DNA from: a virus
Lineage: Duplodnaviria; Caudoviricetes
Direction: 5' to 3' (one strand)
IMG/VR virus record: IMGVR_UViG_3300044556_000086
Location: 1-64,000 of that record
Length of the DNA: 64,000 nucleotides
Part shown: piece by piece, positions 7,314 through 31,163 of the stretch
Layout: the number at the start of each line of letters is the position of its first letter
Numbering within the stretch: the stretch's first letter is position 1
Notes under the pieces: generated by a model
Seen by the model: only the letters and a program-made list of their open reading frames with translations
What the model was told of the DNA's origin: nothing
The model's database searches: none
Made by a program: the position numbers and the translations under genes

Positions 7314-8447
7314 ATGTTCTGTTCTGTACCAATAAAGTTGTGGGTACAGGTTCAGTTGGATGGGTATAGTATAGATTATCATGATTTCTGTACTATACCC
7401 GTAGATTGTCATAGTAGTGAAATATTCCGAAAATCTAAGAAAATCACATACGGGGATAAGGATTTACTGCATTATTTATTTAGAAGTACATTCACAGAAG
7501 ATACGAAAATGCCGGAGTACTATTCTTTTTCTGAGAATAATCTTATAGAAGGTGGATACCAGAATCGATTATTAGTGTTAAAGCAAGGGGTTAGTTATGC
7601 AGTGTTAGTTCTTAAACTAACGAATGCTGTAGGTTTAACTAAGGATAAAAAGTTCTTCTATATCTTGGGTATCTATTTTGTAGGTTCTGTGTTTGATGTT
7701 TCATACCTTTCTAATTACAAGGTTTTTCATGGTATCCGGTTACCTGAAGTCAGTGCTTTAGATAAGGCTGGTAATCTGTATGTACCTAATAATTTCTATA
7801 ATACGAAGGAATCTTTTCAGTCTATTGTAGACAGACCCAGGTATCATAGAAAACACGGTATAGGGGTACTTCAGAAGAATGTAATCGTTAAAAAGATAGA
7901 CTATATTGATTCTTATACAGCTGGGGAAATGGAAACGGTACATTCTTTGTGGGATGAGAGTCGTAAGAAAGATAAAATTATTCGGGGTGGTAAACGGATA
8001 CTCCATAATTTAATCCTGTTAGTCAATAGGGATGATAATTCTTATTTGTACGGATACTATCTACATGATAGGTTATATGGTTTCCTTGGGGTTACTAGGG
8101 TTCATATTCTAGATAAATCTTATGTAATAAACTGGTATGGAAAATCTTTGAATGTACTACCTAAGGAAGACTTGATTCGTTTAGGGTATCTTTATGATAC
8201 AGATTCTAGGGTAATCACGGATAATTTTTCTGAGTATATGTATTATGAAGCTTTTCATGATTCTTTGTGTGATAAAAATGATTCTGCTTTCTACGTGCTA
8301 GGTAGTGTCAGGGATAAGAGTATGTATCAGTGGAAAAGTCGGTTGTGTGGTAAAATCTTGGTGTATCCTGAGAAGTCTTTAGAAGACTATCTAAGAAAGG
8401 AAATGGGCCATGAAGAGGGCTTGGAGTCGTCAATAACTCATGACTAA
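7314..8447 (+). CDS. GNAT-fold / DUF2156-like protein; last residues supplied by the IscB element
   Basis: Weak resemblance to DUF2156 motifs; the C-terminal SITHD is encoded by the element end. Confidence 0.55.
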   Translation: MFCSVPIKLWVQVQLDGYSIDYHDFCTIPVDCHSSEIFRKSKKITYGDKDLLHYLFRSTFTEDTKMPEYYSFSENNLIEGGYQNRLLVLKQGVSYAVLVLKLTNAVGLTKDKKFFYILGIYFVGSVFDVSYLSNYKVFHGIRLPEVSALDKAGNLYVPNNFYNTKESFQSIVDRPRYHRKHGIGVLQKNVIVKKIDYIDSYTAGEMETVHSLWDESRKKDKIIRGGKRILHNLILLVNRDDNSYLYGYYLHDRLYGFLGVTRVHILDKSYVINWYGKSLNVLPKEDLIRLGYLYDTDSRVITDNFSEYMYYEAFHDSLCDKNDSAFYVLGSVRDKSMYQWKSRLCGKILVYPEKSLEDYLRKEMGHEEGLESSITHD

Positions 8448-8615
8448 AGTCACGAGTTTGCTTGTGACTTTATGGTTATTGGGTTATTGAGCAGAGCAGT
8501 GACGTATTGTTCACCTGGTGGTGATTCCAAGCTACCAGCACTGGTTAGGTGCGCCAATGCTATGGAAATTCAACAGATGACGATAGATACGTCATCTGGC
8601 TTACCGCAAAGGAGT
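8429..8615 (+). ncRNA. IscB omegaRNA (HEARO-type) scaffold; guide is the upstream flank (~8409-8428)
   Basis: Structured ~190-nt non-coding region from GTCAA to the iscB RBS, with several hairpins (e.g. CAGATGACG...CGTCATCTG). Confidence 0.8.
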
Positions 8616-10113: not shown

Positions 10114-10663
10114 TTTTAAAAAAGGTTCAATGTATCTAACGACTAAATTCATGAGATACAATGTTCCAAAGAATAAAGTACTAACAGACTATATGACAGA
10201 ACACTTTCTAAAGTACTATAAGCAGAATAGGTTATACTTCCGTAAAATAGGGAAGTATATCATAGATTTTCGTTCCTTGGGTAATCTAAGCTGTATTTCT
10301 ATGTGTTCTAAGTGTCCATACTATCTTACTACTCATTGTCAGTATGAAACTTTTCCTATAGACGGGATAGTTATTTCTGATGACCTTATTTTTGTATTTT
10401 CTGCTGATAGTAAGACAGGTAGCTTTTCAAGATATTGGCATACCGATATATCTAGGATATGTAATAACTATAAGTTGTGTAAATCTATAGAAACAGGTTG
10501 TTATCGAAATACTAAATACATACAGACTCTACATATTCAGAAGATTCAGTCTGAACAGTTTTCTGATAAGTACCTTCCAGTGTATTTAGATAGGAAAGAT
10601 ACCTTAATTTCTCTTTTAGGGTATTCTGTGTATCATACGATATGTTCTTGTTTTCGTCAATAA
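10100..10663 (+). CDS. Hypothetical protein whose native 5' end (ATG 8410) is separated by the IscB insertion
   Basis: Joining 8428 to 10173 reads MKRAWSH-KVLTDYMTEH in frame; in-frame ATGs also lie in the element end. Confidence 0.65.
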   Translation: MYMHDFKKGSMYLTTKFMRYNVPKNKVLTDYMTEHFLKYYKQNRLYFRKIGKYIIDFRSLGNLSCISMCSKCPYYLTTHCQYETFPIDGIVISDDLIFVFSADSKTGSFSRYWHTDISRICNNYKLCKSIETGCYRNTKYIQTLHIQKIQSEQFSDKYLPVYLDRKDTLISLLGYSVYHTICSCFRQ

Positions 10664-10677
10664 CCCATAACTAAAGC
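10656..10677 (+). mobile_element. Degenerate IscB-end micro-remnant
   Basis: C|GTCAATAACCCATAACTAAAGC|ATAAA, with the same junction bases as the other two copies. Confidence 0.5.
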
Positions 10678-10753
10678 ATAAAGTTGTACTTGTTATTCAG
10701 TTCTATTATATATACCTATTGTGAGGAGTGGTGTATAAGTTTAGACCGGGAGT

Positions 10754-15683: not shown

Positions 15684-16631
15684 ATGTCTATCAATACGAG
15701 TCTGGGAGAATTGTTCTATAAGCTTCATACTAAAGATGATACTTCTGTAAAGGTGCATACTTTTCAGAAGAAGGTAGAGAAGGTAAAAGCTTATCAGACA
15801 CCTGTATCTTTAGTAGTACATACCTTGAGAGGATATCAGACAGTAAGTCAAAACCAATTTATTATTACTTCTTACAATGATTATGATATCTTTGAAGTAG
15901 ATGGTTCTAAACTTCCTGATTACTCTAATCTTTATTCTCTTAGACTGAAAGAGATGTTAGGGAAGATAACCAAGGATATGTTCTTTCTCTTCATGGATAC
16001 CCTAGTCACTAAAGGGACATGGGCTAAAGGAATCGAGAACGGTATTTTATCTTATTCTGTAAATGGGTACTTGAGAGTAAATTTACAGGACTTTTATCGA
16101 GATACAAACATCGATTATAATGATATACTCTGTAATGTGTTAGAGGAAATTGCTGAGTTCTATAAGGTACCTACGTATACGATTATCTTACGTATCTTGA
16201 AGGAATATGGGAAGGATACCTACTCTGAAAAGTTCTTTCATAAGTACGTAGATACCACAATTCCTAGTGTAGTATGTACTTCAGATTATTTCTTTTCTAA
16301 TTATCGTATTCTGGATGATGACGATACTCCAAAGTTCAATTTTTCAAAGGCTTTGGATTTATTACAGTCTGGGTATAGTGTTTCTCGTGAGGTATGGGTA
16401 GCCAATAAGAATAGTATTCCTTATCTGACTTATTGTGAAGGTATGATTATCTTAGATATGAATGATACTTCTATTAATGGATGGTCTCCCTCTCAGGATG
16501 ACATGTTTGCTGATGATTGGTTCCAGGTAGACCCGTACTACTCAGATTATTTAGGGGACGATGATGATTTAGAGTATGATAAGAAAGAATTAGTAAAAGT
16601 GACAGATGAGTTCTTATCTTCTTTATCATAG
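15684..16631 (+). CDS. Protein with a split PGDYG-like N-terminus and a C-terminal DUF2829 (Tad2-like) domain
   Basis: FNFSKALDLL..G..VSR..W...WSPSQDDMFADDW; paralogous to 35948..36412. Confidence 0.7.
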   Translation: MSINTSLGELFYKLHTKDDTSVKVHTFQKKVEKVKAYQTPVSLVVHTLRGYQTVSQNQFIITSYNDYDIFEVDGSKLPDYSNLYSLRLKEMLGKITKDMFFLFMDTLVTKGTWAKGIENGILSYSVNGYLRVNLQDFYRDTNIDYNDILCNVLEEIAEFYKVPTYTIILRILKEYGKDTYSEKFFHKYVDTTIPSVVCTSDYFFSNYRILDDDDTPKFNFSKALDLLQSGYSVSREVWVANKNSIPYLTYCEGMIILDMNDTSINGWSPSQDDMFADDWFQVDPYYSDYLGDDDDLEYDKKELVKVTDEFLSSLS

Positions 16632-17002
16632 TTTCGCCAGAAGACTCCTTCCTCTTAGGTGGTTGATGAATGGTGATATTGTGGTATAATATTAGTAGCA
16701 GTTAGACTTCTGCTAGAACAAAAAAGTATTTTAATCAACGGTCTTTGAACCGTTTTTGGAGGAGCACTCCCCCTTGCCGCAGCACGACACGGTATGTGAA
16801 TCGCGACGGGTAGAAAAGAAGTGCAAGTATTATTAAAGTAAGCAGAACTTCGATTTCGAGGGACTGTGTAAGGGGCTTTTGGACAGCCCTTTGAGAATAA
16901 GGATATCCTGACAGCTAACTCCTTTGGAATAGGCTGTCAGGCGTTAGTCCGTATATCAAACTTCTCAAGAATCTCTCGCTTCTATAAGTGGGAGAGGTTC
17001 AA
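16627..17002 (+). mobile_element. Non-autonomous IS605 element / stand-alone TnpB omegaRNA cassette
   Basis: TTTAT then a left end with AAGA guide and hairpin; TGGTATAAT -10; ~16835-16905 is homologous to the tnpB 3' end (41519-41590); right end GAAT-hairpin-TTCAA. Confidence 0.85.
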
Positions 17003-17033
17003 GGTCAGTATAGAAGAAATCAAAAAACATGGG

Positions 17034-17282
17034 TTGTCTAAACGATACTTACAAAGGGTATCTTCTGATACCTTACAAGAACTATCAAAGGAAAAGAAAT
17101 CGAATGGTAGTGCTACTGCTCTTGCTTTGTTAGCTCAGGAAGTATTGTGGGAACGGTCTGGTAGACCTTTTTCCGGTGATATTCAAAGGTACTATTGGGA
17201 CATAGGAGACTATGAAGATGATGAAGATATAGACACGTATCTTGATGACTATGAAGACTATGACGAAGAGGATGATTACTAA
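17034..17282 (+). CDS. Acidic-tailed hypothetical protein; native start codon split by the insertion
   Basis: The empty site TTAT|GGTCAGT gives ATG GTC AGT ATA..., in frame with this ORF. Confidence 0.6.
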   Translation: MSKRYLQRVSSDTLQELSKEKKSNGSATALALLAQEVLWERSGRPFSGDIQRYYWDIGDYEDDEDIDTYLDDYEDYDEEDDY

Positions 17283-17375
17283 TGGTACGTTCGTATTTTA
17301 GTCAGTATGGTCATCTTGATGTGTAGTATACTTCTGGTTCTCGTGATTCTTTTACCGTAAAAGGGGGTTATCTAA

Positions 17376-17777
17376 ATGAAAGATGATACTAAGTGGACTT
17401 ATGCTATTGGTGATGAAGAAGACTATCGAGGTGTGTTCTTCAATACAAAGGAAGACGCTTTAGAAGAAGCCAGGAATGAAATGCAGACAGATGATACCTA
17501 TTCTGGAGATGAGGTCATCTGGATAGGGAAAGTAAAGACTTTCACACCTGTAGTATCTGTAGCAGATGAATTACTTTATGAACTGCAAGACCAAGCTTAT
17601 GATGAAGTTGGTGATTATGGAGATGGATGGCTGGATGATGTAAAGAATGAAGACCAGGATGAATTAGATAATGCTATTCAGAGTTGTTTCATGGAATGGT
17701 TAGAAAAGCACCCTGAATATAAACCAGAGTTCTTCACTATTGAAGAACCTGAATCTTACTCATCAAATAAAGAATAA
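17376..17777 (+). CDS. Acidic phage protein
   Basis: FNTKEDALEEAR motif common in phage accessory proteins. Confidence 0.75.
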   Translation: MKDDTKWTYAIGDEEDYRGVFFNTKEDALEEARNEMQTDDTYSGDEVIWIGKVKTFTPVVSVADELLYELQDQAYDEVGDYGDGWLDDVKNEDQDELDNAIQSCFMEWLEKHPEYKPEFFTIEEPESYSSNKE

Positions 17778-20306: not shown

Positions 20307-20978
20307 ATGCATAATTCCATGTTCCAATATGATTTAGCTATGTATAATCGAATACATGCTATGTACCCGGAAGTAATATTTTCTTCTCCAGAGGAATGTT
20401 TCAAGGTCAATGCCAAGCAGCATGGTGGTAAAGTACTATTACCTTTTATTTCTATCTGGAGGATGCCGGATATTACTTTCAACGCTGAAATGTTCAATGA
20501 TTCTTTTCTACGTACTGGGATGAAGGGCTGGTCTTCTAATGATTCTAAAATAGAGTTTCCGAAGCAGAGATTAAAGATGGCCGGGGTACCCGTAACTCTA
20601 CAGTACCAGGTAGATGTCTATGCTACGAAAAGGGATGTATGTGATGGGATAGCTGCTGAGCTATTCCTAGAAGCTAAGTTACGTCCTTTTATTTCTGTTC
20701 AGATAATGGATTTAGGGGAAAAGTTGATAGAGTTTAATCTGGAAGTAGAAGACACTATTTCAGATGAAACGGATATTTCTTCTTTTGATGAAACAAATAG
20801 GTTCTATCGTCTTACTCTAACCATGAATATACCTGAAGCTGTCTTATTCAGAATCAATGATTTCTATAAGTTAGATAAGATACTGGTAGACTATAAAGGG
20901 AGTCCGTTCCCAGAGGATAAGAAGCCAGTTCATGGTACATACAGTCCTCAGTCTGATACGTCAATAACTCATGACTAA
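20307..20978 (+). CDS. Putative tail terminator / sheath stabiliser; last residues come from a mini-element
   Basis: Directly upstream of the sheath gene; LPFIS and LQYQVDVYA motifs. Confidence 0.65.
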   Translation: MHNSMFQYDLAMYNRIHAMYPEVIFSSPEECFKVNAKQHGGKVLLPFISIWRMPDITFNAEMFNDSFLRTGMKGWSSNDSKIEFPKQRLKMAGVPVTLQYQVDVYATKRDVCDGIAAELFLEAKLRPFISVQIMDLGEKLIEFNLEVEDTISDETDISSFDETNRFYRLTLTMNIPEAVLFRINDFYKLDKILVDYKGSPFPEDKKPVHGTYSPQSDTSITHD

Positions 20979-21004
20979 AGTCACGAGTGTTAGTGTTCCA
21001 AAGA
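20960..21004 (+). mobile_element. 45-bp IscB-family mini-element (one end + one hairpin + other end)
   Basis: First 29 nt are identical to 8429-8457; ends TGTTCCAAAGA|ATAAA as at 10162-10177. Confidence 0.85.
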
Positions 21005-31007: not shown

Positions 31008-31049
31008 TTCTATTAAGTCTATTTTTAGAAGGAGGAAACTTAAACAGCA

Positions 31050-31163
31050 ACCTTCTCAAGAATCCCCCGCTTCTATAAGTGGGAGAGGTTCAATTATGAA
31101 GGGTGATAAATTTTTTTGAGTGGGGGAGGTTCAATTATGAAGGGTATTAAATTTTTTGAGTGG
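31050..31163 (+). mobile_element. IS605 right-end remnant with a tandem duplication of its terminus and flank
   Basis: CTTCTCAAGAATCCCCCGCTTCTATAAGTGGGAGAGGTTCAA is nearly identical to 16961-17002; ~41-bp unit repeated at 31078 and 31119. Confidence 0.75.

Follow-up and report, generated by a model that had tools for sequence, protein, structure and literature searches.

A probable guide-RNA-only mini-transposon of the IS200/IS605 type inserted in the start codon of a phage gene

The window analysed here is the whole stretch of 64,000 nucleotides at positions 1-64,000 of the IMG/VR record IMGVR_UViG_3300044556_000086 (Caudoviricetes), the full record of which comprises 93 kb and is 45% complete according to CheckV. 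A gene with a Tad2-like domain (Thoeris anti-defence 2-like, PF11195; 15633-16631) is followed in this window by a small acidic gene (17003-17282), and between the two lies a protein-less, PATE-like element of 376 nt at 16627-17002, of IS200/IS605 type. Both genes, the element and all of its parts are on the plus strand. The extent of the element was deduced from the start codon that is restored on its removal, the alignment of its family and the list of open reading frames. A first-pass annotation had described 16627-17022 as a stand-alone omegaRNA cassette that had lost its tnpB ORF and was matched to the phage's TnpB. The loss of the ORF is evident, as the longest internal ORFs of the cassette are 22-31 aa in length and a tnpB remnant of 24 codons is its sole recognisable coding piece. 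The only full-length TnpB element of the phage is found at 40220-41645, also on the plus strand, with tnpB at 40338-41594, its TAM TTAT at 40216-40219, an omegaRNA at approximately 41515-41645 and a guide from 41646.

The boundaries of the cassette are exact, since its removal restores a start codon placed as in nine homologues of the downstream protein. Excision of 16627-17002 from the window sequence rejoins TTT ATG GTC AGT ATA GAA GAA ATC (MVSIEEI); the homologues, which are 75-96% identical, begin M-V-S/T/R-V/I/T-E-E/D in nine cases out of nine, with a start of the MVS(V/I)EE(I/V)KKH type. The right boundary at 17002 is also fixed by the family, in which all 34 complete copies end in GGTTCAA. 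The cassette lies immediately 3' of the target and TAM sequence TTTAT (16622-16626), the last two bases of which are the start of the split ATG; it ends in TCAA and is accompanied by no target duplication. The start coordinate given in the first-pass annotation therefore stands, but the element stops at 17002, and 17003-17022 is flanking DNA that would serve as the guide, made up of the G left over from the split ATG and codons 2-7 (VSIEEI) of the gene downstream. The guide that had been claimed, GGTCAGTATAGAAGAAATC, does begin at 17003, directly after the right-end TCAA, and would run for 16-20 nt (GGTCAGTATAGAAGAA...) as read from the flank. To call it a second guide is apt insofar as it is the DNA that follows the right end, but it is the flank of an insertion site and not a chosen target.

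No second site combining the TAM with the guide target is present within the 64-kb window. A search of viral contigs for the empty site TTATGGTCAGTATAGAAG returned one match only, an exact 18-mer (the TAM plus 14 nt of the guide) at L067:4560-4577, which was rejected as a true empty site because its flanks are unrelated and is read as a chance occurrence. TTGAT, considered as an alternative TAM for the cassette, was rejected on the evidence of the family flanks and empty sites. Judging from the proteins of cassette-free relatives, these would carry the TTTATG empty site within an uninterrupted start region, ...TTTATGGTCAGT....

The left end of the cassette (16627-16676) is 93% identical to that of the full-length elements on viral contigs L010 and L004. 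The tetranucleotide AAGA at 16641-16644, 14 nt inside the element, is presumed to be the DNA guide for TTAT; as had been reported previously, the phage's full element has the same left guide, 15 nt inside (40235-40238), and the same TTAT target (40216-40219, compared with TTTAT at 16622-16626 for the cassette). Folded as single-stranded DNA, the left end of the cassette has an energy of -2.6 kcal/mol (z +0.26), no better than shuffled sequence; the corresponding energies are -7.5 in L018, a family copy, and -14.4 in the TnpB element of the phage itself. Substitutions from GGAG to GTTG weaken this hairpin and create a TTGATG -35 box; given the weak hairpin, this copy of the cassette may be hard to mobilise. 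The -35 box (16663-16668) belongs to a predicted promoter at 16663-16690, which overlaps the 3' arm of the left-end hairpin and reads towards the omegaRNA, with a 16-nt spacer between TTGATG and a TG-extended TATAAT at 16685-16690. This promoter agrees with the consensus at 10 of 12 positions, in addition to the TG directly before TATAAT, and is a closer match than the consensus of the family, in which the -10 box reads TATAAT in 22 of 26 aligned copies; the extended -10 noted in the first-pass annotation is thus borne out.

Downstream of the promoter is a leader, or mid segment, of ~140 nt (16697-16834) that contains several hairpins and is confined to cassettes. In blastn searches the middle 166 nt, comprising promoter and leader, matched other cassettes only and no full-length tnpB element, and the leader occurs 1-3 times per host genome. 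One of its hairpins, CGA-CAC/GTG-TCG in this copy and CGA-CGCC/GGCG-TCG elsewhere, has its pairing kept through two-sided changes. The conservation of promoter and leader may reflect recent spread and not selection, as the family is ~88% identical overall. Rfam gave no match at gathering score over the whole window and no known RNA for the leader; at E-values up to 10, a search of 16560-17080 returned only a chance-level Bacilli-1 match over the promoter. That 16670-16835 might be a decayed tnpB or a tnpB 5' UTR was rejected, as blastn with a word size of 7 matched no full-length element; a decayed tnpB is also opposed by the lack of any TnpB-like translation in the three forward frames, which were inspected by eye.

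The remainder of the cassette corresponds to the 3' portion of a TnpB element. The tnpB remnant at 16837-16911 lies behind a TAA and consists of the last 24 codons (16837-16908, SKQNFDFEGLCKGLLDSPLRIRIS) and the stop codon TGA (16909-16911). The right end proper (16968-17002) contains AGAAT, a presumed DNA guide, the hairpin CTCTCGC/GTGGGAG and the cleavage motif TCAA at 16999-17002. As single-stranded DNA this hairpin folds with a z-score of -2.9, and its stem covaries over the family, with CCCGC/GCGGG in some copies and CCTAC/GTAGG in others. The right end is 92-96% identical to those of L004 and L005; the two ends of the cassette are asymmetric, with subterminal hairpins that are related to those of full-length elements.

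The predicted omegaRNA scaffold (16835-17002) extends across the 3' end of tnpB into the right end, with the guide starting directly after the right-end cleavage site, as in the omegaRNA of TnpB. When aligned over 16835-17003 with the tnpB 3' end and right end of the intact elements on contigs L005, L009 and L012, this segment has 96.4% identity; its stems are intact, and it differs at 6 positions in 168 nt from an element whose tnpB is intact. The resemblance to the phage's own element, which the first-pass annotation had placed at 41519-41617, is also real: the stretch 16832-16904 is 86% identical over 73 nt to 41515-41587, which covers the last 26 tnpB codons and beyond, and the 20-mer ACTGTGTAAGGGGCTTTTGG occurs in the window only at 16863 and 41546, with 0 occurrences expected in shuffled sequence. 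The match weakens towards the terminus, where 16957-17002 and 41602-41647 are 65% identical. The TnpB proteins of L005, L009 and L012 are 75% identical to that of the phage, and those of L010 and L004 are 64-65% identical. Judged by these identities, the cassette is a mosaic, with the left end of one lineage and the scaffold of another, rather than a deleted form of the element that the phage itself carries.

Minimum free energy folds place the same four helical modules in the cassette scaffold and in the phage's own omegaRNA (41515-41647). These are a GCAG/CUGU stem around a 5-bp hairpin, a GGGGCU/AGCCCU stem, an AGAA/UUCU stem around a variable hairpin, and the terminal right-end hairpin. 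An RNAalifold consensus of seven sequences, including the phage's own omegaRNA, comprises 43 pairs of which 5 are kept through two-sided changes, a modest body of evidence given how close the sequences are. Across the cassette family itself covariation is weak (3 compensatory pairs of 96 among copies that are ~88% identical), so that long-range pairs are not to be trusted. The cassette RNA differs from the phage's own in an extra hairpin of ~40 nt and in the sequence of the terminal stem. The earlier statement that the cassette is matched to the phage's TnpB accordingly holds for the fold and the TAM, which the two elements have in common, but not for the scaffold sequence, which is closer to that of another lineage.

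Nine viral contigs contain the 20-mer. Intact TnpB elements, in a 418/427-aa frame, are present in five of these (L004, L005, L009, L010 and L012); L007 and L008 hold ORF-less cassettes and L006 a cassette cut at the contig end. A 20-mer search also identified the family in the genomes of Megasphaera elsdenii, Megasphaera sp. (three copies) and Dialister succinatiphilus and in a Megasphaera MAG and an Atopobiaceae MAG, and a 23-mer from the cassette-specific middle was found in 52 human-gut metagenome contigs. The family amounts to 52 metagenome loci, 7 isolate-genome or MAG loci and 4 other viral contigs, with up to 3 copies per genome and at least 25 distinct insertion flanks. Each of the 34 complete copies (354-387 nt) is preceded by TTAT, in the form of TTTAT in 32 and CTTAT in 2. 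For one of the insertions, 3 Megasphaera genomes have the precise empty site, CTCTTTTTAT|TGACAG, between homologous flanks of 92-95% identity, and a control with the reversed pattern yielded none. The cassette family is mobile, as demonstrated by these filled and empty sites and its many flanks. The copy in our phage has the left-end variant GGTGGTTGATG in common with L007, where it occupies a different site in a distantly related large phage, so this sub-lineage has moved at least once. A blastn search of the locus against GenBank phages gave no match. On L011 (IMGVR_UViG_3300029544_000031), the ninth of the viral contigs, a derivative at 8289-8459 occupies the same insertion site, with the same flanks, as the intact element of L005; in this derivative a left end of 27 nt abuts the last ~215 nt of tnpB and the right end, a one-step internal deletion that shows how omegaRNA-only elements arise.

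The insertion has come at a cost to the phage of one start codon destroyed and one anti-defence-like gene shortened. The downstream small acidic gene has lost its ATG and is probably silenced or shortened, because no in-frame start precedes the TTG at 17034. The upstream Tad2-like gene, the reading frame of which is now closed by a TAG within the left end of the cassette, is ~54 C-terminal residues shorter than its homologues P0001 (94%) and P0002 (81%), and the similarity to both stops at 16628, at the left junction. The missing ~54 residues are encoded nowhere in the window. Since they are absent exactly at this junction, ~160 nt appear to be missing beside the left end, for which the simplest reading would be that the DNA between two TTTAT(C) sites was deleted, or that a second copy inserted nearby and then recombined with the first; alternatively, the ancestor of the phage may simply have been different there. 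For the same reason, the TAM now adjoining the cassette may not be the one that was first used. A search of viral contigs for related loci with the upstream protein found no relative.

The proteins on which such an element would depend are unevenly distributed between phage and host. The ORF at 40338-41594 encodes a 418-aa TnpB (Pfam OrfB_IS605 and Cas12f1-like TNB) with the RuvC-I motif AIDIG, the RuvC-III motif NADLNGAANI and the sequence EQEESYTS downstream of RuvC-II. It has Gly at the position of the RuvC-II Glu (IICGYN) and no zinc-finger cysteines, as do the proteins of L004 and L005, in which EQEESYTS and NADLNGAANI are likewise kept. These features fit a resemblance to the TnpB clades with a 'rearranged RuvC-II', which are thought to be active in the account given in PMC10691335. 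A sequence search of the PDB with TnpB 40338 found no relative even at an E-value of 1, and among GenBank phages its best TnpB matches stay under 40% identity. Neither a second TnpB nor further omegaRNA copies were found in the other 29 kb of the record, and Y1 TnpA is absent from the 93-kb phage record. In M. elsdenii, Y1_Tnp is present with 8 hits, and the cassette-bearing Megasphaera genomes hold 12-16 TnpB fragments each, 57-81% identical to the phage's TnpB. Four further viral records, each of which carries either the cassette or the L011 derivative, showed no full TnpB, and one of these records is 98% complete; since phage records without a detectable TnpB carry these elements, the cassette does not depend on a phage TnpB. 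At the phage's full-length element, TTGATGG occurs both at the element start (40220-40226) and after the right-end TCAA (41646-41652), an identity of 7 nt that makes the register of its boundaries ambiguous; excision of 40220-41645 would continue ORF 40088 in frame (…AY LMVNLSADLDYVNIYVCEYS*).

Several described systems bear on this arrangement. In the IS608 element of Helicobacter pylori, work by Barabas and colleagues in 2008 reportedly placed the target TTAC 5' of the left end and right-end cleavage at TCAA, with tetranucleotide DNA guides 5' of the foot of each hairpin. The cassette resembles IS608 in its TTAx target, its TCAA and its candidate guides AAGA and GAAT (within AGAAT); it differs in that its target is TTTAT rather than TTAC and in that there is no tnpA in the element or the phage record. 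The general rule for target and cleavage in IS200/IS605 elements is set out in PMC10055086, where PATEs are said often to encode omegaRNAs that need TnpB in trans. With the omegaRNA PATEs of Geobacillus stearothermophilus, as portrayed in the relevant passages of that paper (Meers et al. 2023, PMC10055086), the cassette has in common its lack of protein, subterminal hairpins at both ends, a fixed short motif without target duplication, a presumed need for a transposase in trans, and an omegaRNA kept at the right end that would take its TnpB from elsewhere. Compared with the same passages, the cassette family is distinguished by its TG-extended -10 promoter and 140-nt leader, which are absent from its full-length sisters, and by being a mosaic found in Megasphaera, Dialister and large phages, with the copy described here in a phage start codon.

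Stand-alone omegaRNAs work in trans with compatible effectors (Altae-Tran et al. 2021, in the summary provided by PMC10691335). As presented in that summary, these OMEGA loci are like the cassette in being mobilised guide loci without effector or transposase, with a co-resident effector locus and a flank-derived guide; they have been shown to act in trans, as the cassette may do. The effector found alongside the cassette has only 75% identity with the one whose omegaRNA the cassette scaffold matches at 96%. The working of a stand-alone omegaRNA in trans is therefore already published as a concept, and the cassette adds an example and material to it, not a new principle. What goes beyond the published descriptions compared, in the parts consulted for each, is a promoter and leader found only in cassettes, shuttling of the element between Veillonellaceae and their phages, and its insertion within a start codon. 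IStrons (10.1101/2023.11.20.567912) also consist of an IS200/IS605 element tolerated in genes, with a structured RNA on the 5' side and an omegaRNA on the 3' side; the leader of the cassette is too short by comparison and bears no sign of splicing, and an IStron identity was rejected, as Rfam found no group I intron at E-values up to 10 over the locus.

The best explanation of the locus as a whole, to which we assign a probability of about 0.8, is that cassette 16627-17002 is a selfish, protein-less mini-transposon of IS200/IS605 type, belonging with PATEs and stand-alone omegaRNAs. A host Y1 TnpA, probably from Megasphaera or a relative, would have moved it as single-stranded DNA and inserted it 3' of TTTAT, splitting the ATG of the small phage gene. 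Its TG-extended -10 promoter would transcribe the leader and the complete omegaRNA scaffold, and read-through into the flank would supply the guide. Any compatible TnpB could load this RNA, whether from one of the many copies in the host or, possibly, TnpB 40338, and would then cut uninterrupted TTTAT-plus-guide sites in copies of the phage that had lost or never had the element; recombinational repair would copy the element back, amounting to homing or retention. Transcription, loading by TnpB, cleavage and homing are all steps that we infer from the DNA sequence.

It is possible, though we lean against it, that the cassette is a dedicated second guide gene for TnpB 40338 that widens the targets of the nuclease. 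The phage record holds exactly one intact TnpB and no other omegaRNA copy, TTAT is the TAM of both elements, and both RNAs have the four-module fold with compensatory changes. The scaffold nevertheless has 96% identity to that of the other lineage and only 86%, over 73 nt, to that of the phage itself, with a differing terminal stem and the extra hairpin of ~40 nt, and the hairpins at both ends are unlike those of the phage's TnpB element. How far such differences matter can be gauged from the L004 and L005 lineages, whose TnpB proteins are 72% identical and whose omegaRNA cores are nearly the same; because of this, a TnpB that is 75% identical may tolerate the scaffold, and use of the cassette RNA in trans by TnpB 40338 is plausible, if on balance doubtful. 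That the RNA would be dedicated to this protein is harder to reconcile with the four viral records in which the cassette or the L011 derivative occurs without a full TnpB, and with a guide that is only the insertion flank.

Two further explanations would give the guide little or no part. The degraded left-end hairpin of this copy, the removal of one ATG and the truncation of the neighbouring gene are what would be expected if the cassette were an inert scar, a dead remnant without functional RNA that has damaged two phage genes, and recent spread alone can explain the high identity of the family. We think this quite improbable, as no scaffold stem is broken and no more than 6 positions in 168 nt distinguish the scaffold from that of an element with an intact tnpB, the promoter matches better than the family consensus, and the GGTGGTTGATG sub-lineage has moved at least once, being present at another site in L007. 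To a regulatory insertion, in which an outward promoter and structured leader act on downstream genes or as a small RNA and a TnpB guide is not the main effect, we give very little credence. In its favour, the strong predicted promoter is directed into 17034-17777, and all of the neighbouring genes are encoded on that strand. The downstream gene, however, has been deprived of a start codon, and TTG 17034 has no good ribosome-binding site ahead of it. The 140-nt leader is cassette-specific with its hairpins kept, and a right-end remnant at 31025-31093 provides a small ORF with the ribosome-binding site GGAGAGG; the leader, however, matches no known family, and nothing ties it to a target.

Taking the cassette, then, as a selfish mini-transposon, it constitutes a boundary-resolved example of a guide-RNA-only transposon that shuttles between gut Veillonellaceae and large phages. 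If the phage TnpB does use the cassette RNA, the locus would offer a natural setting in which to study RNA-guided homing among phage genomes in competition, and it would yield a compact omegaRNA with a natural promoter for a TnpB that lacks zinc fingers and has a rearranged RuvC-II. TnpB 40338 and the cassette might even form a phage-against-phage gene drive, in which cassette-free relatives are cut on co-infection and repaired from the cassette genome, spreading the cassette together with the linked Tad2-like truncation; the GGTGGTTGATG sub-lineage, with its weakened left-end hairpin and improved -35 box, would on that account be turning from a transposon into a fixed guide gene. We consider this scenario unlikely. 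Cassette-free relatives do exist, and the guide corresponds to the first codons of the intact allele of the conserved small acidic gene, with TTTAT in front of them.

Other repeated sequences were observed in the window. A third site, at 31025-31152, contains ~69 nt of a right end of the short type (that of L004 and L010) and no left end. This remnant, at 31025-31093, is 93% identical to 16957-17002 over 46 nt, and after it comes a tandem duplication of 41 nt (31071-31111 and 31112-31152) composed of the last 17 nt of the right end and 24 nt of flank; a hydrophobic ORF of 36 aa begins at ATG 31126, with the right-end GGAGAGG as its ribosome-binding site. Seven sites in 5929-35201 represent a family of phage promoters, TTTACTT(G/T)ACATTAAGTAA-N-TGGTATA(A/C)T, in which the -35 box is covered by a palindrome, and the cassette promoter has only the TGGTATAAT part in common with this family. 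Lastly, a 30-nt repeat, CGTCAATAACTCATGACTAAAGTCACGAGT, occurs at 8428-8457, 10655-10684 and 20959-20988, with two of the three copies identical.
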